Of a stretch of 64,000 nt of DNA, positions 1,321-51,540 are shown piece after piece. The stretch is from assembly GCA_964016885.1 (NCBI GenBank), contig OZ024747.1, positions 15,686,001-15,750,000 of the forward strand, given 5' to 3'. Source of the DNA: Eledone cirrhosa (Eukaryota). Both the position numbers and the translations under genes were made by a program. Position 1 is the stretch's first letter. Each line of letters opens with the position of its first letter. The notes beneath the pieces were generated by a model. The model did no database searches. It was not told where the DNA came from and worked only from the letters and a program-made list of their open reading frames with translations.

Positions 1321-1324
<4 letters not shown>

Positions 1325-1778
1325 GAAATTAACAAATGGAAACTATATTTATAAAACCATATTTATTTCATTATACATGTTTCAAGGACACCAAGTTAAA
1401 TTATGGTGTGCTTTCATCAGACAAAATATAATATAGATCAGTTTTATAAATAAATATTGACATACCCTTAAAAAATGCAACCATTACTGTTGGAAGCTCC
1501 CGGATAACTATCCGGGAGCTTCCAACAGTAATGGTTGCTTTTTTTAAGGGTATGTCAATATTTATTTATAAAACTGATCTATATTATATTTTGTCTGATG
1601 AAAGCACACCATAATTTAACTTGGTGTCCTTGAAATATGTATAATGAAATAAATATTGTTTTATAAATATAGTTTCCATTTGTTAATATCGTATGTTTAC
1701 TCCAAATACTTGTTGAGTGCTTTATATCAGTTATAAAAATATTTGCTTGTTGTATCCCAACAATTTAAATAGAAATTT

Positions 1779-1781
<3 letters not shown>
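1321..1781 (+). mobile_element. Fold-back hammerhead element, family A copy 1
   Basis: Arms 1321-1506 and 1509-1694 are near-perfect reverse complements with centre CCGGATA-AC-TATCCGG. Unpaired tail 1695-1781; (TA)n on both sides. Confidence 0.9.
1587..1651 (+). ncRNA. Minimal type I hammerhead ribozyme (mirror copy 1364-1428 on the minus strand)
   Basis: Stem I UAUUUUGU/AUGAAAUA, CUGAUGA, stem II ACACCA/UGGUGU, GAAA, short quasi-palindromic stem III and AUA cleavage triplet. Confidence 0.8.
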
Positions 1782-3409: not shown

Positions 3410-3728
<319 letters not shown>

Positions 3729-16167: not shown

Positions 16168-16169
<2 letters not shown>

Positions 16170-16460
16170 GATATTACTAAATGGAAACTATATTTATAAA
16201 ACCATATTTATTTCGTTATACATATTTCAAGGACACCAAGTTAAATTATGGTGTGCTTTCATCAGATAAAATATAATATAGAGCAGTTTTATAGATAAAT
16301 ATTGAAGTACTCTTAAAGAATGCAACCATTGCAGTTGGAAGCTCCCGGATAGTTTCCATTTGGTAATATATTATTTTTACTCCAAATAATTGTTGAGTGC
16401 CTTATATCAGTATAAAAATATTTGCTTGTTGTATCCCAACAATTTAAATAGAACTTTTAC
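16168..16460 (+). mobile_element. Family A copy 4, right arm missing
   Basis: Left arm to the centre (GCTCCCGGAT) joined directly to AGTTTCCATT and the tail; close to copy 1. Confidence 0.85.
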
Positions 16461-16638
16461 ATATATATATATATATATTTATTAAACAGATTAAAGTTTA
16501 AGCAAAGAATCGCTGCTTTCACCCTTAACGAGATCTTCTGAGTTTCAATAAATATTTGCTCTACGGTTCTTATATATTTGATATATATTTATCCTTATCG
16601 AGCCCTCTTTGGATTTTAGTCTTAAAATTTATTATTAT

Positions 16639-17513: not shown

Positions 17514-17698
17514 GAGGGCGGTGAATTGGCAGTATCGGGAGAAGGTTGGACGCCATGCTTTCTAGAATAGTTACGCTCCTTTACGGTCTGAGTTCAAATC
17601 CCGTCGAGGTTAACTTTGCCTTACGGGATCGATACAATAAAGTACCAGTAATGTACTGGATCATTGCTGGCCTTGTGCTAAAAGTAGAAACAATTATT
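17514..17698 (+). mobile_element. SINE family S1 copy
   Basis: Runs from GGGCGGTGAATTGGCAGTATCGG through GAGTTCAAATCCCG to GGCCTTGTGCTAAAAGTAGAAACAATTATT. Confidence 0.85.
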
Positions 17699-18933
17699 TA
17701 AGTTACTGATTTTGCGATTGCTTTCTTTACTTGCAGACAAGCAATATGTTCGTTTTGTTTTTCCTTCGAATTTTCACTATTGTCATAGCTAATTTCTTGC
17801 ACCTGCAACATTTTATGATGCGCATGTAGCACCATATATCGTATTAGAGTTTGTTCTGTAACAATTTGAAATTCCCTGAACGAATTGATCGCGCCTGTAA
17901 AGAGAGTGTTGATATTATATAGACCCAAGTAAAAACTGACACATTTCGATGTATGATCAAATATAGTAATGTTTACGTCGTGTGTTAATTTAGGGGTAGA
18001 GTATCCAATATATCCTTCTATTTTCAAATGGTGGTATGTTACATTATAGAGATTTGGTTGGTAATTCTAGTAGGCTGGGCGTCAATAAAAGGCCACACAT
18101 TTAACTCTTACTAAAAAGATATTGCGTTTTACGTGTCAGACATACGGATGATGTAAAGAATTACGCCTGAAACCTATGTGTTTACAATGCCAGTTGTGCT
18201 TTTATATGATATAATTATGCTAAAGCAAATTCCTTTATAGAAGGAGTCAATGTCCTTGAATAAAATCTCTAACATTTATTATTGTGCTGCTTTTAACTAC
18301 AAGTTATAGCATTCCGTGTATAGCTACATAATGATACTAATTTGTTTACTTTACACTGGTTTACATCACTGCTATACAACATTATTTTCTGAAACCTATA
18401 TTGTGATTGTATTACTCTTCCCTAATATGAGGTGAGAATGTGGAAGTGTTTAAATAATGAGTTGACATGATATGAATATTCTGGAATTTCGAGCTCTTGC
18501 CATTTGTCAGAAAGTGAAGAAGTGAATAAAAGTAGTATAGTTTTCATTGTATGCAAGATAATGCCTTACAGCCTATCTCCCAGGCATACCAAACATTTGA
18601 TCTGAAGCTCCTCGCAGTAATTGCATATATTTTCCGCTTCCACATATACTAAATTTCTTCTTAACTTAAGATAATTCCAGATATATATGGTGTAGAACTA
18701 CTGAGTTAAATGGTATTCATTGGAATCAATCAACGTAAAGGACAACATATCAGTTTGGATGAAGCAGTACATCTGCATTCTCCGGCACCGAGATATGAAC
18801 TCAGATTGCAGAGAGATAGATAAATACTCGAAGCCTCTCTATCCACTATTCTAACTACAATACGCTTTAGTGTACATATGTTTGAATATATGCATATGGA
18901 TACACGATTATACAGAGACACAGACACACACGC

Positions 18934-21848: not shown

Positions 21849-22152
21849 ATAACACAATAACGTATATGAAGCCTATACACTACTGTTCTCTCACAGAAAT
21901 AGGAACAAATATTGGAAGAATAAAAAACTGGGCATTTAGTTCAAACCGCAAACGTGAACACATATTCATATGCAGATGTGCGGAAACTTACATAAATAAA
22001 GTTATACACACCAAAGCACTCGTGAATATATATGCATGTGTTCATATATACACACATATATATATATATACGCATGCGTAAACATATACATATATATATA
22101 TATATATATATATGTATTCATACATACAAAAAAAAAAAATATATATATATAC

Positions 22153-25025: not shown

Positions 25026-25150
25026 TTTATTTATTGGCCACAAGGGCTGACATCAAGAAAAACATCACATACGGAACAGGACGGTACGATGTGGGTTTTG
25101 TGCGTGTAAATATTTTTATTATTTATATAAGAAAAGAAAAAAGACAAATA
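25024..25150 (-). mobile_element. Second 3' stub of a related Tx1-like LINE
   Basis: Ends GCCCTTGTGGCCAATAAATAAATC(ATT)n on the minus strand; the internal part resembles the stub at 24804. Confidence 0.7.
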
Positions 25151-25157
25151 ATAAAAA

Positions 25158-25336
25158 TAATTGTTTCTACTTTTGGCACAAGGCCAGCAATTATCCCAGT
25201 GTATTACTGGTACTTTATTTTATAGACCCTGTAAAGATGAAAGGCAAAGTTAACCTCGGCGAGATTTGAACTCAGATCATAAAGGGAGGTAACTATATGC
25301 TTCAAAGCATAGCGTCCGACGCTCTACCGATACTGC
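25158..25336 (-). mobile_element. tRNA-derived SINE (family S1), slightly 5'-truncated
   Basis: B-box-like GAGTTCAAATC, central GCCTTTCATC..GGGTC.ATAAAATAAAGTACCAG (Meta-domain-like by recall) and tail GGCCTTGTGCCAAAAGTAGAAACAATTATT; several copies in the window. Confidence 0.85.
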
Positions 25337-25610: not shown

Positions 25611-28600
25611 CTACAGGCGCATGATCAGAGTAGGCCCACTCACGCGGGCCATTCTCGCCACATTCACCCACCTTTCAGTAAATGTACTGGGGGGCAGCAC
25701 TTCTCTCTCCACCCTCACCTTCCTTTCCAAGTGAAACTTGAAGAAGTTGATGAGGGATTGGCCGAAGAGAAAAGTGTCTGTCTTCAGTCCTTTCAACCTG
25801 GTCCACCATGCAACCTCTTTCGCTACTGCCACCAGGCAGAGGAAAATTGCCTGCCCTTCCTGACCAAAAGAAGGCGGCGGGTCAATCTTCACTATGGACT
25901 CGGACGATAGCCGGATCCGTTCTACACGCGACAATAGCTGTTCGACATAACCCCACAAGTCAGCAATGCACGGACACTGGACGAGTGCGTGCAGAACGGT
26001 TTCGTCGCTCTGCGCGCATCTCGGGCAGGTTCGTCTGACAGCACTTCCGTGCCTGTAGAGTTTATCCCGAACCGGCAGCGCCCCCCGGTAGCACTGCCAA
26101 GCGAGGGATTTCTGGAAGTTATCCATCGTCCCCGGCTCGAAAGTCCTCCGGAACATACTGGTCAGTTCTACTTCGTTGACGCCCAGAGCCTCTCCTAGTA
26201 CGTCATCGCACTTGCCCTCCACTAATCCTCTATAGAAATCTTGAGTGGAAGTTCCACTGACCGCATTGCCCACCTTGCAGAGTGCAGTGAGCGCCTGGCA
26301 ACATTCCAGATGCCAGTCGCCCAGTCTCGGTCTCTTCTTGACCCAGGACTGCAGCTCAGTCAAAGAGATGAGCTGCGGAAAGGCCCGTCTAACAAACGGC
26401 GACCACACCTGTTCACCGTTTAGGCAAAATATCTGGAGATGTCGCAGCCTCAGCGCATGTCTGCGCATCATTAGCCACGGCATGCCCAGCCCTCCACGAA
26501 GAGGGTGCTGGCAGCAGATGGACCGCCTCACCAACGGGACCCGTCCCCTCCACAAAAATTTGAAAAGGAGCCGTTCCAAATTGGCGAGGCGTGGACGGGG
26601 GCAAGGCACGACGGTCAGGCGGTAGTAGATGACGGACGCGATGTACGCGTTCGCCACCTCCGCCCGCCCTTTCAGTGATAGCTTTCTCTCAGCCCATTTC
26701 TGGGTGAGGTTGGCTATCCTGCTCGTCACCTCGTCCCAATTCTTATCCACCTGGAGGTCTGGTCCGAACCAAACCCCGAGCAACTTTACCGGTCCGTCTG
26801 TCCAGCGCCCAACGACGCTGTTGGACGGCATGGACTTGCCTCTCCAGGTGCCGAGCTGCAAGCCCACCGACTTTTCCGGGTTAAGTTTTGCTCCCGTCAA
26901 CCTTTCATATTCCTCCAAATGGGTGCGGATCACCTCGATTTCCGAGGTGTCCGACACCATCACGGTGATGTCGTCCGCATAAGCGGACGCAGCCTTTCTA
27001 CGTCCCGGTTCGAGCGGGATGCCCTGCAACAACTCCAGCTTCCGCAGTAGAGGCTCAAGAGTCAATACGTACAGAAGTGAGGAGAGAGGGCACCCTTGAC
27101 GGACCGATCGAGAGATCTGAAACGGTTCCGAGAGGTGGCCATTAACTTTGACCACCGAGCGGATGCCGCTGTACATTGCAGCGATCCAGCTTCTGAAGAC
27201 GGGGCCGAAGCCAGCCGCCTCGAGGACAGCCTCCAAGTACCGATGGTCGACCCTATCGAATGCTTTCGATTGATCTAAATTGATCAGAGCCCCACCGAAG
27301 CCAGGTTTGCACCCAACCCTCTCTATGATGTATCGCATGAGGTGGAGGTTGTCGTGTATGGACCTGGTCGGGATTGCGCAAGTTTGCGCCTCCCCAACCA
27401 AATCTTTGGCGACAAGCGCCAACCTTTTCGCTAACACCTTGGCCAAAATCTTAAACTCTGTGTTGAGCAGGGTTATGGGCCTGAAATTATCTAGTGTGTC
27501 CCTCTTGTTCTCGTCTTTCCTTATCAGCGTCACTACGCCACGGCTCACAGAACTGGGAATGCTCCCGTTCTGCTGCCAGTTGCAGTAGAGCGCTTCGAGG
27601 AGATCGGAGAACAAGTCTGGCATATTTACGTAAAGCTCGTAGGGCAGACCATCCAAACCGGGTGACTTGCGACTCGAGCAGCCGACAAGGGCGTCCTGAA
27701 TTTCGGCTGATGTTATCGGCTCTTCGCAGCGCTCAGCGTCGGCCGTCGAGAGGCGTGGCAAGCCGTCGAGGTAGGGACTGAAGTCCGCCGCCGTCTCCGA
27801 CTCACCCATCCTCCCGAACAATCGAGCAAAGTGCTGGCGAAAGGCCTCACACATCTGCTTGGAATCGCTCAGTTCGTGTCCATCTCGATCCGTCAAAGAC
27901 CGAATTGTGGTTTTATTTCCACGCTGCGTCTCTGCAAAGCGAGCCCATCGGGCAGCTTTGCTTCCCTCGTTCCTCAGAGCACGCGCCTTAGCTCTGACAA
28001 TGCAACCTTCGTGTTTCGCATTGAAGAAATGGTCTAGTGCCATTCTCGCCGCTAGCACGTCTGTTGCAATGCCACTACAAATAGCCTCGTCTAACTTAGC
28101 TATCAGCCCCTCCTCCTTTCTATTTTTCTCTATTGCTACTTCTTTGCTAAATCCTATCGAGGTTGCTCTAATCTCTCTTTTGAGTGCCCCCCACCACCTG
28201 TTGTTGACAACCCCCCCTGTCAACTTTTGCTTAACTAAGTTGTTGACCCGGTCCCTGTAAGCTTTACGTGCCGGAAACGACATGTTTAGCTTCCAGTAGC
28301 TAGGTCCTAACCTACGTGTCTTATCTAGGTCGACCATACAGATCACAAGCTTGTGATCTGAATAGGCAACCGTTTTAAAATGTGGACATCCTACACTATT
28401 TCTATCTCTTTTCCTAATGAAAATCCTATCTATGTACGATCTAGGTGACCCTATGCGATTGGTCCAGGTCCATACTGGCGCATTAGGGAAATCTAGTCGG
28501 TACCTGTCAGACAGTTGAAACTGGCTGATCAGGTACTTGAGGCTTTTGCACCCCCCGCTCCTATCAGATACTCCCACACAATCCCAGCGTGCTTCTAAGA

Positions 28601-29030
28601 TGCCATTCCAATCCCCTATTAACAGTAAAGGGCGAGACGTAAGCAGAAAGTTTTCCAGGCGCCTAAAGAAGTCCGGCCGACCGGCCCCAGTAGGGGCGTA
28701 GACGGCCACCAGTCTAAAGGCACCACCTTCGCTATTGCTCACGTCCAGGACCACCAACTTTCCGTCAGGATCCCGGAAGATTGACCTTACCTCGAGATCC
28801 AGACATTTCCTAAACAGCACAGCCACTCCACCTCCCATTCCCGGCCGACTAACAGATGCAAAGATCTGATAATCGTCGAAAATCGGCGCCAGTGCGCGTG
28901 TGTCGGAAATTCTGGTCTCGCTGATGGCAATTACATCCATTCCTAGTGACCTGAGGTCGTTGAGCAAGTGACCTTGCTTCCAGGGCGACCCCAGGCCACG
29001 AACATTTAAACTTCCTACTCTTATGGCCAT
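25611..29030 (-). CDS. LINE ORF2: APE endonuclease, reverse transcriptase and C-terminal CCHC zinc finger (1139 aa)
   Basis: Endonuclease motifs SLNVRG, ISET, VYAP, GDWN, IDRIF and SDH; RT motifs KSPGLDG, FRPITLLN, LDQSKAFDRV, VRQGCPLS and AYADD; CPRC...H...C zf-RVT. The frame is uninterrupted. Confidence 0.96.
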   Translation of the reverse strand: MAIRVGSLNVRGLGSPWKQGHLLNDLRSLGMDVIAISETRISDTRALAPIFDDYQIFASVSRPGMGGGVAVLFRKCLDLEVRSIFRDPDGKLVVLDVSNSEGGAFRLVAVYAPTGAGRPDFFRRLENFLLTSRPLLLIGDWNGILEARWDCVGVSDRSGGCKSLKYLISQFQLSDRYRLDFPNAPVWTWTNRIGSPRSYIDRIFIRKRDRNSVGCPHFKTVAYSDHKLVICMVDLDKTRRLGPSYWKLNMSFPARKAYRDRVNNLVKQKLTGGVVNNRWWGALKREIRATSIGFSKEVAIEKNRKEEGLIAKLDEAICSGIATDVLAARMALDHFFNAKHEGCIVRAKARALRNEGSKAARWARFAETQRGNKTTIRSLTDRDGHELSDSKQMCEAFRQHFARLFGRMGESETAADFSPYLDGLPRLSTADAERCEEPITSAEIQDALVGCSSRKSPGLDGLPYELYVNMPDLFSDLLEALYCNWQQNGSIPSSVSRGVVTLIRKDENKRDTLDNFRPITLLNTEFKILAKVLAKRLALVAKDLVGEAQTCAIPTRSIHDNLHLMRYIIERVGCKPGFGGALINLDQSKAFDRVDHRYLEAVLEAAGFGPVFRSWIAAMYSGIRSVVKVNGHLSEPFQISRSVRQGCPLSSLLYVLTLEPLLRKLELLQGIPLEPGRRKAASAYADDITVMVSDTSEIEVIRTHLEEYERLTGAKLNPEKSVGLQLGTWRGKSMPSNSVVGRWTDGPVKLLGVWFGPDLQVDKNWDEVTSRIANLTQKWAERKLSLKGRAEVANAYIASVIYYRLTVVPCPRPRLANLERLLFKFLWRGRVPLVRRSICCQHPLRGGLGMPWLMMRRHALRLRHLQIFCLNGEQVWSPFVRRAFPQLISLTELQSWVKKRPRLGDWHLECCQALTALCKVGNAVSGTSTQDFYRGLVEGKCDDVLGEALGVNEVELTSMFRRTFEPGTMDNFQKSLAWQCYRGALPVRDKLYRHGSAVRRTCPRCAQSDETVLHALVQCPCIADLWGYVEQLLSRVERIRLSSESIVKIDPPPSFGQEGQAIFLCLVAVAKEVAWWTRLKGLKTDTFLFGQSLINFFKFHLERKVRVEREVLPPSTFTERWVNVARMARVSGPTLIMRL

Positions 29031-29059
29031 GCTGGCAGGATGAATGGGAGAGGAAAGGT

Positions 29060-30970
29060 TTACTTACCTTCCGGGGTCTTGTGAAGGTCGGGTGGTTCGA
29101 CCTCCATGGTTTGTGGGGTTTCTTTTGGGAACCCCTTTAATAGTCTTGACGTGGGTTTTACGTTCGGGGTTCCCACATCCCGAGGAAAGCTCTTTCGAAT
29201 TTCTTTGTATGAAGCGAGCGACATTCGCATCAGAAGCAAATTATCTGGTACGCGAAATGTGCTCGCTTCAAATGTTTCCCCGTCTTTTTCGATGTTTGTG
29301 CTTCGTGCTACATGGGCCATCAATTCCTTGTTGGCCCTTCTGGCAAGCACGAAGTTTTTAATGTTTTGTTGCTCGGGTTTTATTTGTTCGTGTGATTGTG
29401 GTGGTGATAGCTTTGTTAGTGTTGTTTCTATTGTGTCTGCGTTTGTTGTGGGTGTGGTGTCTGTAGTTTCTGATGTTTGTGTGTCTATTTGTTCTTGTGT
29501 CTGTTTAGCTTGTTTGCGTTTGGGGGATTTTGGTGGTTGTGTTGGTGATGCTGTGGGGAAAATGTTTGTGTGGGTGGTGTGTGTATTTTTTTTTGTGGGG
29601 GTGTTTGTGCTTTGTGGATTTCTTTTTTTTTTGTGTTTTGTTTTTTGTATTTTGGGGGACTTTGGTTTTCCCTCATCTTCACTGCTGGAGGATGAGGGGT
29701 CTGTGGCTGTGAGCGTGTTTGTGTCTGAGTGAGTGTTTATGTTCTTGTTCGTGTGTGTATTTTGGGGGGGAGGGGGAATGGGAGAGCTTTCCTCGTTTCC
29801 CCCCTGGGTGTGCAATTTTGGTGGTTCCATTGTTGACGGTGTTGCTGGTGGTCCTTGTCCCGGCGTCGCCAGCAGTGGAATCTTTCGACCCCTTGCGCTT
29901 TTCGGCAGTTGAGGGCAGAAGGCTCGCAAGTGTGTCGTTTCCCCACAAAGGAAACAATGCGGCCTTTTGCCCTCAGTCATTATATGCAACACCCTCCCGT
30001 TTTGGAGGCGGATGTGGTCCGGGATTGTTTTTACGTTTTCGGGTCTGATTTGGAGCAGTATCTCCAGATCAACCCCGGACCAGTCGTCCCTGGCAGTTCT
30101 CGTTGCCTCTACCGGGACTGTATCCGTTCCTTCCACGATTACGCAACCCAGGAGCCACCACATATCAAGTCCTGGTGGAATCCTGGGAATGCGCACACGT
30201 GCTATTCGTTTTCCCATGTGGGAGGGGTACATTATGACCTTGCTGGTTTTGCAAGGGGTCATTGAATGCTTCACAGCGAGGGCTTCAGACTTGAACAGCA
30301 CCGAAACGGTGCCGTATTGCCTGCCCCTCTCTATGAAGTCTGTGTCCTCTCTGATGTATTTCAGTGCGGCTTCTATGTCAGCTTGGGCGATTATCGCTGC
30401 CCTCTTTGTCTCTACTGAGATGCATCTGAAATGCACCGTTCTTTTTTCCACTGCCTCAATGGCTTCTGCCGGGACAGTTAAGTTTGCCCAGGTCTGCTCT
30501 TGATTTATGATTTTCCAGGCCTGGGCCAACTTTTCCTCTCTGTTGGTTAAGTCGATGCTGTAGCATGGTCTCCTTTTAGCCGCTGCCACAGCAGCGAAAG
30601 TGTTCTTGTTGGTGTTGTCACTGTTGTTGTTCTTGTTGGTGTTGCTGCTGCTATTGCTGTTGTTGTTCTCCCCTGTGTCGTGGTTACCCTCTGTGCTGTT
30701 GGCCTTGTTGGTGCTGTTGCTGTCGCTACTATTACTCTCTGTGCTGTTCGTTTTGTTGGTGCTCTCGTTATTACCACCTTCTGCGCTGTTCGGCTTGTTG
30801 GTGTTGGTGTTGTCGCTGTTACCACCTTCCGCGCCGCTCGGCCCGTTGGTGCTGGCACTGTCGCTGCTCACATTCGTGCTGGTGGCGCTCCTCGCCTCAC
30901 CTCTCCTCTCAACGCTCAAGTCGCCGTTGCACGACAGCAGACCCGCCTCTAGGGGGCGTGGCTCCGCCAT
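29060..30970 (-). CDS. LINE ORF1 (gag-like, zinc knuckle; 636 aa)
   Basis: Lies directly upstream of ORF2. Contains a [14 protein letters not shown] (CX2CX4HX4C) knuckle, an N/S/T-rich repetitive N-terminus and a K/T/P-rich C-terminus. Confidence 0.9.
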
Positions 30971-31318
30971 GTTTTTTTGAGAAAAAAATTATTTTTTTTT
31001 TTTCAAAATAAAGTTCAAATATTTGGGCCAAAAGGCCCAAATATTATGAGTTATTCCTTCACAGGATACAAATTAATGTCTTATAATGCTTCAGCGGTAC
31101 AAAAAATAAACAATTCTCTACAATTAATCCTCAAAAAATTGCTTACTCACGGAGCTTCAAAAAACGTACATCCACTTTCGTCAATAATAATAATAATAAT
31201 GATAGAGGAGATGATGATTATGATAAATGGCCTTGATAAAAGAATGTATATATATATATATATATACATACACACAGAAACATATGTATATATACGTGTG
31301 TGTTTGTGTGTGTGCGTT

Positions 31319-31549: not shown

Positions 31550-32418
31550 TATTGAAACATTGTTCGGGGTTATTATCAGTAAAATGTAGATATGAGCATT
31601 TATTCTGTAGTGACACAACTTTTGTGAAAGGTGTTGGTAAAATCATCTGCCCAATATATTTGCTGCTCCCTTGATATCAAACTGGAAATGTCTGGTGAGT
31701 AAACAGTTTCAACTGCTTCTGAAGATAAACTCTATGCTTAAGGTCAATAACTTGTAATCAATACAGTGATGAAGCAGCTGTCGCCAGTTAGGAGATGAGT
31801 TGATAGTCTTTCATCGTTTGCGCTTCTTTATTTAAGTGCATGTTTGTTCTCTTGTCCCCGACACTATCTGCAAATAAACGCATTTTATACTTTTGATGTA
31901 TTCAGCAATTGAATTTAAAACAGCGGTGAAAGAGATAATATAGAGAATTTCGCTTGAATAATCTCGATTAAACAATAGATTGCTAATGTCCAAATATAGG
32001 AAGATGATGATGATAACAATAATAATAATAATATTAATAATATTGATAATAATTATTATTAGAATCATAATACTTTTATATATTTAATCAGAAGACCAAT
32101 TACAAAGAATGATTATTCATACATATAATTGCAAGTACAATGTTTCAACACTAGATGATGGGGATGAAGGTATAATAAACGTGTAGAAGACAAAATTATG
32201 TATATAATGATGTTGTTCAAGAAGGTTATTCAAAGAAAAAATATTTCTTAAAGTGTTCAAAAGCTTTTGGATAGTAAATGAATTATTAGGAAGTAAACAC
32301 AATAAATATAAAAGTGCATTCAGAACACTTAAGATTACCCCATATGCCGAAGTGAAAAAACCCAGCTACTTATGTCGATGTCCACCTTCTCACGCCTAGC
32401 ATTATTTGTATTATTTAT

Positions 32419-32677
32419 AGTCTGAGTTCAAATCCCGCCGAGGTTCACTTTACCTTTCATCCTTACGGAGTCGATATGTAAATGTACCAGTAATGTACTG
32501 GGACAATTGCTGGCCTTGCGCCAAAAGTAGAAACAATTATTTGTACTTGAGGTTGGTTACCCGCCGACAACTTTGTCTTTCTTAGTTACGGGGTCGATAA
32601 AGTAAATTACCTGTAATGCACTGGGATAATTGCTGCCTTTGTACCAAAAGTAGAAACAATTATTTGTACCTGAGGTG
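32419..32677 (+). mobile_element. SINE S1, 5'-truncated, with a tandemly duplicated 3' half
   Basis: Two successive body+tail units, each followed by TTGTAC(T/C)TGAGGT. Confidence 0.8.
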
Positions 32678-35408
32678 TGTTACTCCCAAATAAGCCAGGT
32701 CACATCCTTCGTAATGAAACAATGCGTGGTCAATTAACAATTCCTTTGGGATCTACATTACAAAAAAATACACCTTCCCCGCCTTTTACTTTACGAAATC
32801 TAAAAATTGATGGAACAAATGAATCCCACAATTTAGGACACAAATATGAAAACAATAAAAATAATTATATAACGTGTAATTTCATTATTATTATCTTAAA
32901 TATAGATAAATCCGCCAATACCTAAATTTTAGGATTTATTATCTTCTTACACAAAATAGGAAATTGTCTCATTTATCACATGACTTTAATGATCATATCA
33001 ATTAAGGCACATGTTAATATTTCTTATTAAGTTCCTTTAAAATGAACGGATAATTGTTTTCCGACAATCAGTTTAAACCATATAAGAACTGTGGGAATTT
33101 TATTATAATCTACTAACTTAATTTAAGCTATTAATTTATTATAATTACTTTTGCTTGTGTAAAGAAATGTCTTTATAGTGATGGAGATATTCACTTCGTA
33201 CCTAATTCATATAAAATATTCCATATACGGATTTAATTCCCAGATTTAATTTCTATTTAATAATAACTGAATTAGGAATGAACAAAATATATCTGTATAT
33301 TTTCTATCAGCTGAATTGTATGTATGTTAAAGCACATAAAATGAAATTGAGCAAAAAAATTAGTAAATTATGAATATTATCCAGTGGAAATAGTGCCAAA
33401 GATGTGTACCCCTTTTTCGTAAGCCGTGCTGACAATATACACGGCTAAATATATATATTATACTACTCCAATCTGTAAATTGATTCTGATTTGCTTAAAC
33501 TAAGAGAATCACTATAACATTTTAATGAATTATGAAATCTATTGTGGGAAACAATCTTGAGTTATACTTTGCTGGATATTCGATGCGAATACAACTCTAT
33601 TTATGGCCATCTGCCAGGTGTTTGTGGTTTGACAGGGTGATAGAGACGGACTACTACATATGAGCAGGTACCGTACGTTCCACCGGCTTTAGCATTGTTT
33701 TCTTTGCATTTGAATTGGTTTCTGTCAGTGTGAATAAAGATCCGTATACAATTGCAGAGTAAAAGTTTGCAAATATCTGCAGATATATGAAGATAAATGT
33801 ATGGGCTTCACATTCACTCATTGTCAATGTCAACACATTATACAACTACTATTCGAAATCTTGGCACTTCCAGTCGTATGACCATGGATGTGTTACTTCC
33901 TTAACAAAGGTATTCAATTAAGAACGGTGTATAGGATTATCTCACTACTTTAAGTACTTCGGCACTTATTCCATAAACAATGCCAAGTAATGCTCTAGAC
34001 TGCTGTATGAGGTCAACACAATCGATATGATGTAAACAGACACGCTGTATTTCATTGGTAATATATAGAAATCAGCGATGTTGACCAATCATTTGTACAT
34101 CTTCTAGTTTTTGAAAGTTACATAATCAGTTAATTAATTACAGTACGAGGTAATTGTTCATATTTTTCGACTGTATTTCACATCAATTTCAATTTGTTAC
34201 AATTTCGGAGTTCTCTCCCTTAGCAACAGGCAAGATTAACATTAGCTACTGAGTGTATGTGTTTTTCACTGGACTAAAAATATAAATTTCCTGAATTGAA
34301 AATATTTTCCTCGCTACATTAAGTATGTTAGTCCTCGCTCAATTAACCCGATAGTCTGGAAGCAGAGAAATCAATCAAAGAAGGAAATCATCCCTCCCAT
34401 TGCTACATTTAAAATTGCAATAAACATTTTCCATTCAATTCATTATAGCTACATTATTTGCAGTTGTATAGTTAAGAATAATATATATTGACAAACAAGA
34501 AAAACACATCCATTTTGTTTCTTACGCACCTATTCCTATCCCACCATCCGCACTAATATTGTTTTAATTCAGTCTAGTTATCTCTATCGCTTCTCTAACA
34601 ACGAAACAGCAAAATGACTGCAATGAATCAATAAATGCTGTTAGACGTGCATACGACTCAAACATCCCTATAAACAATAGATCAACAGATTAAACCAAGT
34701 GAATGATGTAAGCTAAACAGAAGCGTCGATTTCCGCCATTTTATGTTGTATCTCAATGAATAGCTCAATTTTACAATACTGATCGTTTCCATCGGCCTTT
34801 TTCCAGTCAGAGAATAACATTAAAGAGAAAACAGCTGGCGAAGTGTTTTGTTATCATTAAATGCTGAAGGAATCTAAATTCGTCATGTTTTCACGCGAAA
34901 ACTAGCAATGTGAAGCGGTAATTGAGAATAATATCTAACTCGACACATACAAGCTTCCTACGAATGAGTTCATACTTCAGAATATATCTTACGATGACCT
35001 GTTTGAAGTGAATACTGATTGAAGTGAAGAAAAAAAGAAAAACTACAACACTATAAAATACGGATTAATAAGGAAGAATAGCATTCAGCTCCTAAGTAAG
35101 CGAGGAAATAACTAAAATGAAAATGAAAGTATTTACAAAGAAAATGTAAGAGTTAGGTGGAGGGATATGTCAAGGAAAAATATTAAGGTATCAAACTATT
35201 CATTTAAATATATGAACATAAGCGTTGTGTAAGAGCACATATGTGGATGAGCTTTCGTGTAGGCATGGAGGCAATCAGCAGCTGGTCATCACCATAAAAT
35301 TATGTACACCAAACCTGAGCATCGATGGTTCATATAGTGTCACAGGAGCGTTAGTAAATCTATTACTGAGAGTGTATATGTGTCTATATATACGAATATA
35401 TTCTTGTT

Positions 35409-36224: not shown

Positions 36225-36290
<66 letters not shown>

Positions 36291-36296
<6 letters not shown>

Positions 36297-38727
36297 ATAC
36301 TTGGGGAGAGTCATATTTGGGTAATATTGCCAGAATTAATAACAGAACACACTCACTGTTTGGTTGGTTTTCGCTTTTCGCTTCTGTGTCTTTTATATCG
36401 GTAATCTAATTTATTCGATTCTCAATGTTGCCATTGACTGACAAACGTTCAAAAATAATAGATACAATATAGACACAAACACATATATATAGTTTATCAA
36501 AGTGCTTTCGTTGCACATCTGCAACATCGTCAGTGGTGCTATTGTTTCCTCCCCTTGCATTGTATTTTCTACGCCATCTTTATTTAGTCTGTTTATATGT
36601 TTATTTATTTATTTATTTGTTTGTTTATTTGTTTGTTTATTTTATTTTGTTTTCTTTGCGCATGCGTTAGCTTGTGTGTATAGTGTTTTGTTTGATGTGT
36701 CTTCGTGATTGGGTCACTGTGTATTGGTTAATGTATTCTATCTTTACTAGTGTGTGTTTATATGTGTTTGTTGTTATTGTGCTTGTGTATGTATTTATTT
36801 ATTTATTTATCTATTTATTTATTTATTTATTTATACTTCTCTTAGGTCAGTGTTGTTTGTTTGGGTGTTGTTGTTATTCCATTCATTCATTCAGTTTAGC
36901 CTTGACCTTCTAAGTTCTATTTCACTGGCCTCTCTGATTTGCCTATCTGCAGGGTCATTTCTATGGTTAGATATTATTCTAATTTCTATGTTGACTATGT
37001 TACCGTCGTGTTGTTGTCTGGCATGTTCGTATAGTACTGAACCGTTTTTTCGTCCTTTTAGTTCCCCCCAGTTTTGGTCTATTATTTCACCTATGCTACG
37101 AGCTGTCTCGCCTATGTATGTTGTTGTCATGTTTCTGCAAATAACCTCTGTACATCTCATGCTATAGATTACGTTTCTAGTTTTACAGTTTATCCGGGGG
37201 TTTACCTTACATATGATACATTTCCTATTAGTACAGTGGGTTTTCTTAAAAGGGTATGTTTTGCTGATCAGCGATTTTATGGTGGTTCTTGGCTTTTCTA
37301 CCACCTTAATCTTTAAGTGTGTCTTTCTCAGGGCCTTTCTACACTGGTTAGCTAATTTCCCTCCAGGGGTAGCGTCCACAAACATGAAACTCTGGTATCT
37401 CTGGTTGTCGTACCATGAGGTGGCTTTCCCTATCGTATGTCTAGCCCTATCTAAGCTATTCCATGATTTGCTCCTCTATAATGGGCAAATTCCTTTCATG
37501 TCCAGTACTATGAGGGTCTTATACTTCTCCATGGCTCCTTCATATATTCTGACTCTGTCTCTTTGGTTGTAGCCAGAAACTGCATGCGGTTGATGAAGTG
37601 TTGGATGTGTCTTTCCATTTCTGTTGGGTGGCAACCAGTGTAGAAAGGCCCTGAGAAAGAGCCACTTAAAGATTAAGGTGGTAGAAAAGCCAGGAACCAC
37701 CATAAAATCCCTGATCAGCAAAACCTACCCTTTTAAGAAAACCCACTGTACTAATAGGAAATGTATCATATGTAAGGTAAACCCCCGGATAAACTGTAAA
37801 ACTAGAAACGTAGTCTATAGCATAAGATGTACAGAGGGTACTTGCAGAAACATGACAACAACATACATAGGTGAGACAGCTCGTAGAATAGGTGAAAGGA
37901 TAGACCAACACTGGAGGGAACTAAAAGGACGAAAAACGGTTCAGTACTATACGAACATGCCAGACAACAACACGACGGTAACATAGACAACATAGAAATT
38001 AGAATAATATCTAACCATAGAAATGACCCAGCAGATAGGCAAATCAGAGAGGCCAGTGAAATAGAACTTAGAAGGTCAAGGCTAAACAGAATGAATGAAT
38101 GGAATAACAACAACACCCAAACAAACAACACTGATCTAACAGAAGTATAAATAAATAAATAGATAAATAAATAAATAAATACATACACAAGCACAATAAC
38201 AACAAACACATATAAACACACACTAGTAAAGATAGAATACATTAACCAATACACAGTGACCCAATCACGACACACATCAAACAAAACACTATACACACAC
38301 ACAAACGTATGCGCAAAGAAGACAAAATAAAATAAACAAACAAACAAACAAACAAATAAATAAATAAATAAATATAAAAACAGACTAAATAAAGATGGCG
38401 TAGAACATACAATGCAACGGGAGGAAACAATAGCACCACTGACGATGTTGCAGATGTGCAACGAAAGCACTTTGATAAACTATATATATGTGTTTGTATT
38501 TATATTGTATCTGTATTATTTTTGACCGTTGGTCAGTCAATGGCAACATTGAGGACCGAATAAATTAGATTACCGATATAAAAGACACAGAAGCGAAAAG
38601 CTAAAACCAACCAAACAGTGAGTGTGTTCTGTAATTAATTCTGGCAATATTACACAAATATGACTCTCCCCAAGTATAACAATACTTGTTTCGACACACG
38701 ATTTCATATCAAAAACCTCGCAAAACT
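36291..38727. mobile_element. Penelope-like element (GIY-YIG 3' part) as a head-to-head inverted pair in (TA)n
   Basis: Left arm 36291-37626 (-) and right arm about 37633-38727 (+) are reverse complements over about 1.05 kb. The translation gives CTNRKCIIC...CKTRNVVYSIRC...YIGETARRIGERIDQH (GIY-YIG). Hammerhead cores lie at 38434-38476 (+) and about 36495-36538 (-). Confidence 0.88.
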
Positions 38728-38738
38728 ATATATATACA

Positions 38739-38853
<115 letters not shown>

Positions 38854-38854
38854 C

Positions 38855-38900
38855 AGGCTGAATGGGTTGGGTTGTATAACCCAACGAAACGTAAGTACCT
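38855..38900 (+). ncRNA. Hammerhead in a solo PLE terminal fragment (38852-38995)
   Basis: AGG/CCU stem I, variant core CUGAAUGG, 8-bp stem II GUUGGGUU/AACCCAAC and GAAAC-GUAA-GUA. Confidence 0.65.
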
Positions 38901-39004
38901 ATAAATATCACTTTTGTAACTTACTATACTTAACATGCTGCATGGTCTGAGTGCTCTTACCCTTGGATATTCCAACTAAGCTTATACTAGATAATATATT
39001 TATA

Positions 39005-42727: not shown

Positions 42728-42782
<55 letters not shown>

Positions 42783-43080
42783 GTAGAACACTGGAAGGTA
42801 ATATCCGTAGTGGTAAAGCACTCAGACCATGGGAGAAGTTAGGTAGAAGTGGTTACACAACAGTTAGTTCACCATACCGAGAACAATTGTTTCACCTTAG
42901 CGGATCCTTCCAGTGTTCTACCATTATATACGTCTCCAGCAACGGTCAGCAGATTCTCTTCACTACGTAGATGTTTGGCTTTTAGCTGATTCTTCACCAC
43001 GTGCGAGTTTGGCTTACTACCCTGATAGCGCTCTCTATATCCTCGTGTCCTACACAATTTTGTGTCTCATCAACATCAGT

Positions 43081-45203
43081 ATGGATTTATACGAACTGGA
43101 TTACTCCCTGAAGAACATTCCCACTCCCCCCAACCCTGTTTACCAAAAGCTTCTCGTACAAAAACGGAAGATGTCGTCAGACGCTTAAGATGGCGAGCCC
43201 TAGCTTTTGACGAAAAAATTGCAGGCACCAATAAAACCTTCAACCTGAAATCGAGAGCCTACCCTCCTAAGGTAATTGTACCCGCTCCTTTCGTCGAGGC
43301 GGACCTTCTTGGCTTAGCCGCTAACATTTCCTTTCGCAAACACCCTAACACCATTCAAGCTAAATTTAGAAAGGATATTAAGAAATTTAGGTCTTCTAAT
43401 AACACTTTCGTCTTTCCGACAAAACTAATAATATTTACGAAGTCGACAACACCACTTTCCGCCACCTGGGTCATAACGCTATTACTTCCAAATATAAAAA
43501 AGCTAACCCTATGGCCTACCACGACATTAATACAGAAGCCAAAGAACTTGCCATCGCCCTTAAGGTGGATTAGAAGCTACAATCTCTAGCTAAGCGGGAG
43601 GCGTTCCTCACCCTGAAAGATTACAAGGTAGACTTAACTTCTAACCTCACATGTAGACTAATAAACCCGGCACGCACAGATATGGGACTAGTCAGTAAGG
43701 CCATATTTAGAAACATAGTTAAGACCATTAGGACCAAGTCCAACCTTCCGCAGTGGGAGAACAGCGACTCCGTAATTAAGTGGTTCAACTCCTTTAAATC
43801 CCAAAAGCGAAGTTCACACAGTTCGACATTGTTGATTTTTACCCGTCGATCTCAGAGAACCTGTTAAACAAAGCGTTGGACTTCGCTACCACTTACACTA
43901 CTGTCGATGGTTTAGACAGGGAAATCATCGTTCATTGCCGGAAAACCATCCTCTTCAACGACGGAGTAGCCTGGGCAAAGCAGTCTACATCTTCAGACCT
44001 GTTCGACGTCTCCATGGGATCGTTGGACAGTGCTGACGTATGCGACTTGGTTGTCCTATTTATTTTAGATATATTACGTGTTAAATTCCCGGACTTCCAC
44101 ACGGGAATATACCGCGACGACGGACTGAACTTATTGATCCATAAAAGTGGTCACGACCTCGACCGGTTTAAAACAGACTTAGCTTCTACCCTCAATGAGT
44201 TAGGACTTAGGATAACGGTAGCTGCCAACCTCTCTACGGTATATTTCTTAGACATTAGTTTAGACCTTCGCACACACACACCTACAGACCCTTCCATAAG
44301 CTAAATGAAAAATTCAATTACATTCACAAGGACTCATGCCACCCCCCCCCCCCCCCCCCCACTGTTTTTAGAAAGTTCGTAAATAATATCAGTACTAGAA
44401 TCTCAAACCTCTCCTCTAATAAGGCTATCTTTGACAGGGCGGCGCCATACTATAACACGGCGTTAGCTAACAGCGGCTTCACGCAACCTATCACTTCCTC
44501 TCCCACTATCAACAACAGCAATAAGAAAAGAAAGCGTAACAATAGACAAACTATCTGGTTCTCTCCTCCCTTCTCACTCAACATTAAAACCAATGTAGGC
44601 AAACAATTTCTAGCTCTCTTAGATAGAAACTTTCCCATAGGTCATAAATACAATTCCATCTTTAACCGACACAAAGTAAAACTAGGATACTCCTGCGCTA
44701 AGAACATGAATGCCCATATCACCAACAGCCCTAAGAGCAACACCCCACCAGGGTGCTCTTGCCGCAAGCCCGAAGCTTGTCCCATTCAACATCAATGCAA
44801 CACCCCCGCTGTAATTTATGAAGCTGTGGTCACTTCCAACCGACCAAATCAACCACAGGAGGTCAAATCCTATGTGGGTATGACGGAAGGCCAATTTAAG
44901 GAACGCTTCCTGAACCACCAGTCGACCTTTAGTTACCCGAACAGACATTCATCCACGAAACTCGCGAGCCACATATGGTCCCTCAAGGACTCAAGTATAG
45001 ACTACTCCATTCAATGGAAAGCCATCACTAAGTCCAAGCCATACGCAAGGGGAAATCCGTCGTGTGGACGATGTATTGATGAACGAATAAATATTCTAAA
45101 GAGATTATGCAATAGTGATTGCCTAAACACGGGATATGAATTATTCACACGTTGTTCAGACGTCTCGAAACACCTCTTACATAACTACCAAGCTCCGGAT
45201 TGA
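43081..45203 (+). pseudogene. PLE RT + GIY-YIG endonuclease pseudo-ORF
   Basis: Track ORFs 43062-43589, 43682-43867, 43876-44304 and 44706-45203 are consecutive pieces of one protein, separated by frameshifts. Confidence 0.85.
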
Positions 45204-45372
45204 ATCACACTAACATCCTAATTTTCTTATCAACTAGAAACTTTTCGGACTTTCGCAGTTATCTCCATTACACCTCTCGCACGCTTTTTAGTATTGCCTG
45301 TGTGAAGTGACGGTTTCTGCGCATGCGCGTTCGTGCGGTTATCCTTCCTGATCCGTATAACCATGTCCATTA

Positions 45373-45409
45373 CGAGCTGAGGTCCGCTAAAGTAAAACAA
45401 TTGTTCTCG
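45373..45409 (+). ncRNA. Hammerhead of the PLE 3' terminal repeat (degenerate)
   Basis: CGAG/CUCG stem I, CUGAGG, (G>A)AAA-CAAUUG-UU; the inverted copy near 42880-42905 retains GAAA. Confidence 0.6.
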
Positions 45410-45437
45410 GTATGGTGAACTAACTCTTGTGTAACCA

Positions 45438-45475
<38 letters not shown>

Positions 45476-45516: not shown

Positions 45517-45614
45517 ATAATTTTGAGATAGAGCACCCGTGATGTTTGCTCTAATCTGATGTTTGCTCTAATCAGATTAGAGCAAACATCACGAGCGCTC
45601 TATCTCAAAATTAT
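45517..45614. repeat. Palindrome with an internal tandem duplication
   Basis: ATAATTTTGAGATAGAGC...GCTCTATCTCAAAATTAT; GATGTTTGCTCTAATC occurs twice in the left arm. Confidence 0.8.
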
Positions 45615-47509: not shown

Positions 47510-48453
47510 GTTCATTATAGTCCTCCAAGCCATAACAGAGGAGTTTAAGACTGGATGCCATGGGAACTTCTCTATGCTGATGATCTGGCTCTTATAGCAG
47601 AATCAGTAGAGGAGCTTGAGAATAATTTCTGGCTATGGAAACAGCAGTTGGTATCAAGAGAACTGAGAGTGAACATAGCTAAGACAAAAGTATTGATAAG
47701 TAGAAGGGAGGACAATACTCCGATTCCATCAGGGAAATGGCCATGTGTGATATGTAGGAAAGGAACTGGCATACATTCCATAAAATGTACACAATGCAGA
47801 TCTTGGGTACACAAGAGATGTAGTAGGATAGCAGGCAAACTAACAGGTAGGGAAAGCTACGTATACAGTAGATGTACAAGGAAAGTTGGCAGTATTAATC
47901 GCAGTAATAGACACATTTTTCCAATGCAGGTGGGTTCTATAGAAGTGGTTGTTAGCTTCCGGCATCTAGGTGATCAGATTAGCATGGGAGCAGGTGTTCC
48001 GAGGCCATAGTATCTAGAATAAGGACGGGTTGGAAGAAGTTTAGGGAGCTGCTTCCTTTGTTGACAAAGAAGGGTTTCTCCCTGCATACAAAAGGACGGT
48101 TATATGATGCCTGTGTGAGATGCGCGATGCTGCATGGTAGTGAGACATGGGCGGCAACTGCAGATGATATGCGACGGCTGGACAGAAATGGAGCAAGTAT
48201 GCTCCGTTGGATGTGAAATGTCAATGTGCGTGAACGACCAAGCATGGACGAGTTGAGAAAGAAACTGGGTATAAGAGGGATAAGTTGTGGTGTGCAGGAG
48301 AGAAGGCTGAGATGGTATGGACATATGATGCGTATGGAGGATGACGGCTGGGTAAAGAAGTGCCAAGAAATCCCAGTAGAAGGAAGACGCAGAAGAGGTA
48401 GACCACGTAAAACATGGGCGTAAAACATGTAAAAGAGGTAGACCACGTAACAT

Positions 48454-48456
<3 letters not shown>
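47510..48456 (+). mobile_element. RTE-clade LINE fragment (RT C-terminal part), 3' end missing
   Basis: PWELLYADDL, VNIAKTKV, Cys-rich insert, YDACVRCAMLHGSETW, RRLRWYGH and RRRGRPRKTW; frameshifted. Confidence 0.85.
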
Positions 48457-48491
<35 letters not shown>

Positions 48492-48494
<3 letters not shown>

Positions 48495-49113
48495 TCACCA
48501 TCAGCATCAGCATCAACATCATCATCATCATCATCATCATTTTACGTCCGCTTTTCCCTGCTTGCAAGGGTTGGACGGGTCCTATTCAGTACATCATTTC
48601 TCCACTTGTCATGGTCCTTCGTCATATCCTCGGTGAGTTTCAGCGATCTGAGGTCTGCTCTCACCACCTCCGCCCATATTTTACGTGGTCTACCTCTTCT
48701 GCGTCTTCCTTCTACTGGGATTTCTTGGCACTTCTTTACCCAGCCGTAATCCTCCATACGCATCATATGTCCATACCATCTCAGCCTTCTCTCTCCTGCA
48801 CACCACAACCTATCCCTCTTATACCCAGTTTCTTTCTCAACTCGTCCATGCTTGGTCGTTCACGCACATTGACACTGCACATCCAACGGAGCATACTTGC
48901 TTCATTTCTGTCCAGCTGTTGCATATCCTCTGCAGTTGCCACCCATGTCTCACTACCATGCAGCATTGCGCATCTCACACAGGCATCATATAACCGTCCT
49001 TTCGTATGCAGGGAGAAACCCTTCTTTGTCAACAAAGGAAGCAGCTCCCTAAACTTCTTCCAATCCGTCCTTATTCTAGATACTATGGCTTCGGAACACC
49101 TCCTCGGAACACC
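48492..49113 (-). mobile_element. RTE-clade LINE 3' fragment with (GAT)n tail, inverted relative to the copy at 47510
   Basis: Reverse complement of about 47993-48420, plus the native 3' end (...RTRPTLASREKRT*) and a (CAT)n/(GAT)n tail. Confidence 0.85.
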
Positions 49114-49197
49114 TCTTATATATATATAAAAGGGATATATATATAAGGGATATATATATATATAAGGGATATATATATATCAAGTAAGAACATGGGT

Positions 49198-49335
49198 GAT
49201 GTGTTGGTGTAATGGTAGCACAGTGGTATGGATAACCAAAGATGTGGGTTCGACTCCGATGTACGTCAAACCCACTCTGCAACTCCGCAAATGTTGAGTA
49301 CTCCCTTAATTAATGGTCATCCCGGGTTAGGCACC
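49198..49335 (+). mobile_element. tRNA-like head (SINE of a second family, or tRNA pseudogene)
   Basis: A-box TGGTGTAATGG and B-box GGTTCGACTCC at tRNA spacing; no clean acceptor stem. Confidence 0.5.
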
Positions 49336-49499: not shown

Positions 49500-51002
49500 G
49501 GAGATTTGTGTATAATTAATAGCAATCTATCAATATTAAATTCTAAGTTGAATAGTAACCATATAGTTCAGGAGAATACCATTTCTACGTATATCATTAG
49601 TAACATTGGATGTCAGTACTAAACATATATTCTTAGTTTAGCAAGCTGAACCTTACAGAATATGACAGCTGAATCTATCCGAAAGTATCTAAATAGATAT
49701 CCCCCTCTCTCTCTCTATCTCTCTCTCTCTATCTCTTCCCCTCTCCCATGCTCACTATTTTCTCTCTATTTCTCTTATTCATTCTATATATATTACTATC
49801 ATTTTGAGTGAATATGTTGTCTGACAACCTGAATTCTTCTAAAACAATCTACAAAGTGTGTTGTAATTTTATGGGATGCCTTTTAAAATAAAATGTTTAT
49901 ATGCGAAGCAAGTAAGAGCGGGATGTGGTTTAAAGTTAGGATTCTATACTCTTTTAAAAGGTTATTAAATACTAAGAATAACAGTTTAAAACTAATGATT
50001 GAGAAGCTATCACCAACGTAATAATTCATACGGCTACTTTGTGAAAGCTGACGGAGTAAATAATGAAGAGGATGAATTCATGCAAAAATAATAAACATCT
50101 GGTGAAAATATTTGAAATGGAATCTAGAAGAAACAAAATAAAACGCTTTAACATTAGCCAGAATCTTAACAAAAACAAACTATACAAATAGAACCTTAGA
50201 GAACTAAACAAAAAATAATAATAGAGATATTAGGAAAAGTGATATGTCTTAAAGAGCAAAAAATATATACATACGTTACAAAATAGGTGACAGGGGAAAA
50301 CAAACAGAGAAACGAAAACAGAGTTTATTCGTGAAACATACATTGACCAATTTAAACTAATGATATTGATAATGGAACACAGAATGTAAAGGTTTTTGCA
50401 AACATTGTGTTTGTACCATGAAAGAGTAAATAAATATAGCTTGATGGATAGATGATATGATCCTCGGTCGTTTAAGACATAAAAAGTCAGGCCTTGTGAA
50501 AATAAATTACAAAGCTAAATGTAGATTCCTAAATCCGTTGATCTAGAATTTAGAAACATTATATCGCCAATTAGAAGGCTTGCTGCCAATAGTTTGTGTC
50601 GAAGGGATATATGTTTTTTTAAATTCATATTTTGTTCCTGAATAAAATAGTTTATAATAATTTGGCCTATTTAAAACGAAAGTCGGTCAATTAGGAAGAT
50701 CTATAAATCGTCGGGTTAAATGTCATCGGATTCTTTCCGACTTTTTTGCTCTGTGAGTTAAAATCCCGCTGAAATCAACCTTGGCATTCATCCTGTTAGG
50801 TATCACATAATTCTTTCTAATTGTTGAGTTGTTAGACCCCTTATGTTGACTGCTACTTCTAATAACGATTTTAGACTTGTCACCAATGTACACATTTTTT
50901 CCCATTTAGTTAATTCTACGCATGCATACAGTATTGTACACCATCGTGGATCAATGGACGTACATAATGTTCAGCAAAAGGTGAATATGTCTGTTTCTTA
51001 TC

Positions 51003-51193
51003 ATTGTTTCTACTTTTAGCACAATGCCAGCAATTATCCCAGTGTATTACTGGTACTTTATTTTATCGACCCCGTAAGGATGAAAGGCAAAGTTAACCTA
51101 GGCGGGATTTGAACTCAGACCATAAAGAGCCGTAACTCTTTGCTGCAAAGCATGGCGTCCGACCCTCCACCGATACTGCCAATCCACTGCCCT
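51003..51193 (-). mobile_element. SINE family S1 copy
   Basis: Reverse complement of the full S1 pattern, from GGGCAGTGGATTGGCAG to AAAAGTAGAAACAATG. Confidence 0.87.
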
Positions 51194-51540
51194 TATAATA
51201 CCATGAGAATCCTCTGAAGATCAGACATGTTTTGGCAGAGTGAACGATCGTGATTAATTAAAATGATCAATACTGTTCTTTTGCTCGTGAAACTGCAATA
51301 AGGGGAAGATTTGTTGAGCAATCTAGCTTTGCTTTGCTTAACGAATAATATACCATTAGGATACGATGCTTCTGAGGATTCTTTATTATAAAGTATTTTC
51401 CTGAGATCTTCCTTTTCGGATAACCTGTGTTTTATTTAAGGTATTTCTATATTTCTATTTATAAAGTTTTCTTAATTAGATTCTAAGCAATTTATATCAC
51501 CAAAATGTAAAGTATGTTACTGACTAATTTTACACACACG

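Follow-up and report, generated by a model that had tools for sequence, protein, structure and literature searches.

A head-to-head, 5′-truncated Penelope-like insertion in a (TA)n tract of Eledone cirrhosa, and a tail motif in neighbouring elements of probable Hydra type

How did two copies of the same ∼1 kb sequence come to lie head-to-head in a dinucleotide tract, and do they belong with the much smaller palindromes found nearby? The window, by which we mean the whole 64,000 nt stretch of Eledone cirrhosa DNA that was analysed (contig OZ024747.1, forward strand, 15,686,001 to 15,750,000), contains both: an inverted pair of 2.4 kb and several mini palindromes. The initial annotation read the former as a fragment of a GIY-YIG Penelope element that provides the latter with a coding partner. 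We find that the 2.4-kb element is a real, ordinary insertion of a Penelope-like element (PLE), and that what it has in common with the minis is a class-wide layout, the machinery being likely different. The features are collected in Table 1.

Table 1. Positions of the principal features, numbered from the first letter of the window
Feature	Position	Strand	Remarks
Left (TA)n tract	36228..36292	.	Likely half of insertion target
Left arm	36293..37349	-	1057 nt; linker and GIY-YIG endonuclease remnant, 3′ UTR, pLTR-like end; tail-less
Hammerhead-like motif, left arm	36500..36533	-	Same string as in right arm
Extra 5′ coding sequence, left arm	37350..37632	-	283 nt; RT thumb region (tblastn)
Head-to-head junction	37632..37633	.	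One shared letter
Right arm	37633..38681	+	1049 nt; same region as left arm
ORF remnant, right arm	37633-38150	+	Frameshift near 37931
Hammerhead-like motif, right arm	38439..38472	+	CUGACGA, extra U, 6-bp helix II, GAAA
Predicted hairpin	38671..38688	+	7 bp, AACA loop; tail-less end at loop's end
One-sided tail, right arm	38682..38726	+	45 nt; family sequence
Right (TA)n tract	38727..38852	.	
Mini palindrome, family A	1324..1781	+	Minimal hammerhead in each arm; 90-nt tail; motif 1699-1723
Mini palindrome, family B	3509..3728	+	89-nt tail; Hydra-type motif 3656-3682
Hydra-clade PLE (by motifs)	42780..45439	+	2660 nt; near full length, frameshifted; TA tracts both sides
Tail motif	1699, 3656, 7645, 13287, 15993, 23482, 38928, 42839, 49282; L005-L076		
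Dispersed repeat copies	17515-17699, 25132-25336, 32414-32683, 51000-51195, 57398-57624, 60560-60768		

The stretch 36293-38726 consists of two truncated arms whose 5′ ends meet centrally, with (TA)n on either side, as first described. Over 1047 aligned sites the arms show 1007 matches and 40 mismatches (3.8%, SE 0.6%), with 12 gap columns in four events, and they form a 1-kb inverted repeat of 96% identity that is far above chance (blastn E=0). The additional 5′ coding stretch on the left arm, put at about 270 nt in the initial annotation, is present and reads as stated there (HFINRMQF / SGYNQRDRVRIY, across a frameshift near 37577), its size being 283 nt. The terminal tail of ∼45 nt was likewise found on the right arm only; its length is given as 42-45 nt, rather than a fixed 45, because the next three letters of the left arm blend into the TA tract. 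Each arm has sequence that the other lacks (283 nt on the left, 45 nt on the right), so that neither simply duplicates its partner. At the junction, comparison with the family's upstream sequence on either side revealed no palindrome and no overlap beyond the one letter, and no TA or host letters lie there. The flanks outside the TA tracts are unrelated and not mirrored and, as both ends sit in (TA)n, a target-site duplication is unreadable. A direct pLTR is absent from this copy. An ATG at 38660 opens a frame of 22 codons that reaches the end of the tail, for which a comparison with 156 relatives gave no convincing match (best score 38, in the wrong position). Adjoining the element, and sharing its right TA tract, is a 139-nt PLE end (38853-38990) with a degenerate hammerhead core, a long helix II and the tail motif discussed below.

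Both arms are dead, the left through a stop and a frameshift and the right through a frameshift. In frame, the arms differ by 4 synonymous and 11 non-synonymous codons, which matches the expectation without selection, that is, neutral decay.

The longest stop-free frame of the left arm is 194 aa, and its six relatives show 36-38% identity (E 8e-36 to 4e-28), each with an RT YVDD motif upstream. Common to the six and to the left arm are CX4CXXC, YIGE, R, two H, E and N; the motifs given for C-terminal EN+ PLEs in PMC8557442 are a CX4CXXC linker, CCHH, YIG, R, E and N. The left-arm residues are C108, C113, H151, H156, YIG 120-122, R126, E182 and N194, and the catalytic H is retained in the right arm only. 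A profile built from the six relatives matches 10,647 proteins (E up to 0.001), and two of the six match Pfam GIY-YIG, under the curated cut-off. A cluster look-up supplied a name for none of the relatives. Searches with the window fragments themselves returned no match in Pfam, a PDB sequence search 0 matches and a viral contig search 0 loci. The endonuclease with its CCHH residues ends the ORF, downstream of the thumb region, and the RT core lies outside the truncated copy; reads of the same family extend the frame upstream of 37633 into a stretch that matches the relatives. By its predicted protein, then, the 2.4-kb element is the 3′ third of a decayed C-terminal GIY-YIG PLE, and the original identification holds.

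Which clade of PLE is it nearest to? From CXXC to the next C its linker has 7 residues, and the corresponding spacing is 7-9 residues in 50 of 63 relatives and more than 12 in none. The Nematis-type endonucleases of PMC8557442 Fig. S2 agree with it in having CX4CXXC and then C after 7 residues (Nematis_C4, Nematis_Cr), the CCHH residues, R-x-x-x-E-A and a terminal LN, and the element shows the reduced CX2-5CXXC linker that serves as a criterion of the Nematis clade. Its relatives were compared as proteins; those of full length, with ORFs of about 1000-1080 aa, have G-G-[AP]-I-G as RT motif 4, as against GLAMG in two nematode rows of PMC8557442 Fig. S1 that we take as Nematis examples. We therefore call the element Nematis-like by its endonuclease, a placement made by motifs rather than by a tree, and its family is probably uncatalogued. 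Other labels fit less well. Neptune rows of PMC8557442 Fig. S2 have linkers of at least 20 residues rather than 7; Naiad and Chlamys require an endonuclease N-terminal to the RT, and here it is C-terminal; and a Hydra label is at odds with CCHH and CX4CXXC in place of CxCX5C. Compared with the C-terminal part of the Hydra element at 42780-45439, the 2.4-kb element has no significant similarity (best E 0.66).

To sample the wider family, 37350-38726 was compared with 4 of the 23 runs listed, half of them contig sets and half reduced-representation reads. The read sets come from organism A, and 25-46% of sampled words were found in its runs. Matching reads numbered 591,161 and 628,360 in two runs. 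In the X21 run this is about 4.7% of all reads (591,161 of 12.47 million), a share that reflects the enzyme sites in the family and therefore gives no copy number. Single joints are represented by 100-290 reads, as against about 300,000 reads at 38408-38453, a ratio that suggests, as a rough inference, a thousand or more copies. Family reads continue 5′ of both arms, running beyond 37633 into further coding sequence, which marks each arm as a shortened piece of a longer element; loose ends are also seen at 37633. The tail, 38682-38726, is covered by family reads. The stop of the left arm at 37476-37478 is absent from them and the base missing near 37577 is present, so that both defects are private to this copy. 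Inversions recur in the family, making up 7 of the 15 joints listed (of 217); all 7 are in the orientation of the element itself and were seen in both sets of raw reads. One of them fuses 20 letters of family sequence from further upstream to 38537, which is the same geometry with other break points. Each inverted joint is known from a single start position, and some may be library chimeras. Among the reads and contigs listed, none spans 37632/37633. The raw-read runs are bounded by GCATGC and AATT sites, from which the junction fragment would be 37583-37997, about 415 nt compared with about 230-315 nt for the dominant fragments, and contigs drop rare variants, so that this comparison had no power to reveal the junction.

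The form of the insertion is a familiar one. An adjacent, inverted, 5′-truncated copy with a one-sided tail is described as the typical PLE insertion (PMC8557442 Fig. 2 legend and section 6; PMC3846280), the tail being quoted as 30-40 bp and (TA)n being targeted by the cysteine-linker clades (PMC8557442, PMC3846280, PMC8969392). With the canonical C-terminal EN+ unit as drawn in PMC8557442 and PMC3846280 the 2.4-kb element has in common the 5′ truncation, the head-to-head copy, the tail at one end, the hammerhead-like motif near the 3′ end and the microsatellite target. It differs from the quoted form in the length of its arms, each of about 1 kb and extending into the ORF, in a tail of 42-45 nt rather than 30-40 and in having no direct pLTR.

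Are the two arms the product of one event or of two? The initial annotation proposed to decide this by arm divergence, with a value equal to the family average pointing to two independent insertions. At 3.8% the arms are indeed somewhat closer to each other than family reads are to the right arm, if only modestly; the test is a weak one, because identity to the right arm is 95% or higher in 44% of matching reads and lower in the other 56%. Letters shared by the arms are more informative. We used 39 of the 40 rows listed (of 275), leaving out one that was of low depth and lay beyond the arms. In 17 of these rows the window departs from over 90% of family reads and of contig depth; 10 of these sites fall within the paired arms, and at six of the 10 the left arm agrees with the right against the family (binomial probability 3e-7 at a background of 3.5%, 4e-5 at 8%). 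If organism A is the species of the window, these six family-rare letters favour one insertion event or one source of template, although the pattern would look alike if the reads came from a sister species with a different master copy.

We think it somewhat probable, taking all parts together, that a 5′-truncated and since decayed PLE entered the (TA)n tract, likely as a single insertion, by two probable inward primings followed by joining, and that the A and B minis were likely made in the same manner by a different enzyme, of the Hydra clade. Two reverse transcripts would probably have been primed from the two cut strands of the target, one begun at the tail's far end and the other at the tail-less site, and their unfinished 5′ ends would then probably have been joined. 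Such a course would place the 3′ ends outward and give a one-sided tail, an unequal 5′ reach and a one-letter junction. The priming step is modelled on the in vitro behaviour of a PLE from another clade, Poseidon from Anolis carolinensis (PAc). In the experiments of PMC11167929 both target strands are cut and extended, and the stretch that becomes the tail is bracketed by two RT start sites lying close to an AC-rich stem-loop. These start sites were measured in vitro; those of the 2.4-kb element are predicted. As in PAc (PMC11167929), the ORF of the 2.4-kb element might start inside a terminal repeat.

The most serious competitor, which we nevertheless regard as unlikely, also invokes one event: self-priming by fold-back on an antisense template or nascent cDNA, the endonuclease later trimming one tail. 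Self-priming has been proposed for head-to-head units in PMC3846280, PMC8557442 ascribes the tail to resolution by the endonuclease, the shared rare letters would be accounted for, and both the minis and the Hydra element have central palindromes or short overlaps. In the 2.4-kb element, however, the overlap at the junction is one letter, and the arm that extends farther 5′, and so would have served as template, is the tail-less one, so that fold-back needs an extra trimming step. The tail-bearing arm is the shorter in the 2.4-kb element, in 16169-16461 and in 42780-45439, and the longer in L038 and L060.

It is improbable that two truncated copies entered this (TA)n tract independently, one within the other or adjacent to it. 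The family is abundant, the divergence of the arms is not far below that of the family, and TA tracts here gather several elements, the PLE end at 38853-38990 among them; against this stand the six shared rare letters, a junction free of TA and host letters and the recurrence of inverted junctions in the family. Still less credible is local repair, through a template switch or gene conversion between the arms, that duplicated or homogenised what had been a single insertion: this would likewise yield shared rare letters, but each arm has family sequence missing from the other, and the mismatches are even along the length (3.9%, 3.6%, 3.9%), two of them lying between the shared sites at 38015-38092. 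An assembly artefact from fold-back reads, for which the unspanned junction might be cited, can be given almost no weight in view of 40 differing sites and four indels between the arms, flanks that are not mirrored and a family-derived extra on each arm. Twin-priming of the L1 type leaves two inverted segments that are adjacent, non-overlapping parts of one RNA. It was rejected here, the arms overlapping over 1047 nt and both reaching the 3′ end.

The hammerhead-like string reported for both arms, CUGACGA-(U)GUUGCA/UGCAAC-GAAA, is exact at 38439-38466 (+) and 36533-36506 (-). Its core, the extra base after A9, G10.1-C11.1 and a 6-bp helix II are as PMC4209133 describes; helix III is 2 bp, and helix I has only 2 contiguous pairs (3 of 8). 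Rfam gave no hammerhead family among the 150 of 174 matches listed. Because helix I is weak, self-cleavage by this motif appears doubtful. The predicted AACA-loop hairpin at the tail-less end recalls the AC-rich stem-loop shown for PAc in PMC11167929, and it folds no better than shuffles (z -1.38), as is true of all four tails folded (z -1.38 to 0.38).

We then turn to the minis. The initial annotation saw the same palindrome with a one-sided extension in small families, and this layout is borne out: extensions run to 75-109 nt in the family at 1324 (three copies), to 78-90 nt in that at 3509 (again three copies) and to 56 nt at 9579. (The labels A and B in this text are our own and are not matched to the families A, B and C noted earlier.) The hammerheads of family A are well formed, helix I having 8/8 pairs in four of the seven arms tested. 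The family A copy at 16169-16461 joins a long tail-less arm to a very short tail-bearing one with a 6-nt overlap, a geometry like that of the 2.4-kb element; the palindromes at 9579-9816 and 45517-45614 are without a canonical hammerhead core. Non-autonomous hammerhead elements, short and non-coding, that originate from the ends of PLEs have been described (PMC7229834; bioRxiv 10.64898/2026.07.22.740005). These non-LTR retrozymes resemble the minis in their origin from PLE terminal repeats, and differ from them in being head-to-tail tandem units, as they are presented there, rather than inverted pairs with one tail.

What failed is the proposal that the 2.4-kb element links the minis to a coding partner. 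By blastn there is no nucleotide similarity between them, and in local alignments against shuffles 11 of the 12 minis scored at chance; the twelfth gave an AT-rich match scoring 47, compared with 32.8 +/- 4.6 for shuffles and 178 for a within-family control. The common layout, being the published, class-wide form of PLE insertion, is no evidence that the minis belong with this element. The idea of one integration pathway for all of them survives as a common PLE mechanism and falls as a single enzyme family. In PMC3846280, likewise, cross-mobilisation between PLE types was not found.

A better candidate for the enzyme lies downstream. The element at 42780-45439 has the motifs RWR and DKT, a CSCRKPEAC linker (CxCX5C) and CxxC before the catalytic E. 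The Hydra clade, as characterised in PMC8557442, likewise has RW[RK], DKT, CxCX5C and CxxC before the catalytic E, a length under 3 kb and a (TA)n target. By these motifs, and not by a tree, it would be classed as a Hydra-clade PLE; a Nematis label for it was dropped in view of the text and Figs S1-S2 of PMC8557442. By eye, its N-terminus resembles that of Hydra-1_Obim in the same paper. It carries a minimal hammerhead with a palindromic helix III and, on its 5′ side, an inverted copy of 57-61 nt of its own 3′ end plus tail. The body starts with the last 18-25 letters of its tail, which is what a tail that forms the beginning of a following unit would give.

In this element and in mini families A and B, the tails have a motif in common. 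The window holds 7 copies of GAGTRCTTT where 0.86 would be expected, for a pattern drawn from these same sequences; six of the seven lie in the tails of the A and B minis and of the Hydra element. The seventh, at 22013-22021 (-), is inside a 200-nt piece between microsatellites. Among 80 metagenome loci related to the Hydra element, 72 had enough downstream DNA, and a hammerhead core was found in 52 of these and was absent in 20. The exact GAGTRCT, predicted to follow the hammerhead in such relatives, was found in only 3 of the 52. A wider pattern, RCTY-N8-18-GAGY-RCT, written post hoc after the loci had been viewed, is present in 19 of 46 (six of the 52 being dropped as too short) and in 13 of 27 distinct cores, compared with a mean of 0.135 and a maximum of 2 in shuffles. 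In the window it has 11 matches against 2.0 expected, none of them within 36293-38726. Its stem is mostly GCTC...GAGC in the relatives and ACTC...GAGT in the window, so that pairing is preserved, and this two-sided change may have been one event in the lineage of this genome. In a MAFFT alignment of 20 motif copies the 5′ stem strand was out of register. The inverted copy ends short of the stem by 5 nt (L038, L060), by 7-8 nt (families A and B) or by 7 nt (the Hydra element). Inspection by eye further places the motif in three of the six Hydra consensus sequences in the supplement of PMC8557442 and as a variant in a fourth; the remaining two end short of it.

As the tail motif is common to families A and B, the Hydra element, 19 of 46 of its relatives and published Hydra ends, the two families most likely belong to Hydra-type enzymes. 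They do not derive from the 42780 copy itself, the ends of which match theirs in the motif only. A tentative proposal, which we put forward as a possibility short of an even chance, is that the tail bears a clade-wide Hydra RNA signal (a 4-bp stem RCTY...GAGY followed by RCT, changed here from G-C to A-U on both sides and lying 5-8 nt past the tail-less end). It would be bound by the enzyme and choose the two starts, would assign the minis to Hydra enzymes acting in trans, and was perhaps borrowed by the tRNA-headed element at 49197-49330, the 2.4-kb element using an unrelated hairpin at the corresponding position. At 49197-49269 there is a tRNA-like head (tRNA-Ser by ARAGORN), followed 12 nt on by the tail motif and, after about 30 nt more, by a (CT)n tract. 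The whole, present in one copy in the window, is possibly a tRNA-headed SINE with a Hydra-type tail.

The window holds further repeats. An apparently intact LINE at 25614-30988 (-) has two long open frames (642 and 1150 aa) with endonuclease, RT and zf-RVT matches in Pfam. At 47988-49105 a LINE 3′ fragment, which we take to be RTE-like, forms a tail-to-tail inverted pair (435 nt, 96%) around (TA)n and (ATC)n. A dispersed family of 180-200 nt, not palindromic, has at least six copies at 81-90% identity.

Literature searches found no earlier description of the Hydra tail motif, and there are 0 mentions in the main text of PMC8557442; subscription papers (Arkhipova 2006; Evgen'ev and Arkhipova 2005) and preprint supplements were outside their scope. 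Within the literature searched, the motif is the sole part of this account for which no printed precedent was found. The 2.4-kb element itself adds one further example of a known form of PLE insertion. Its longer-reaching arm is the one without a tail, and a genome-wide count of this geometry could separate the two models for head-to-head units, because plain fold-back cannot give a tail-less longer arm without trimming. The tail motif matters more: it offers a route by which non-coding scraps of PLEs may be assigned to a clade, and a defined RNA element that could be mutated in a reconstituted reaction.
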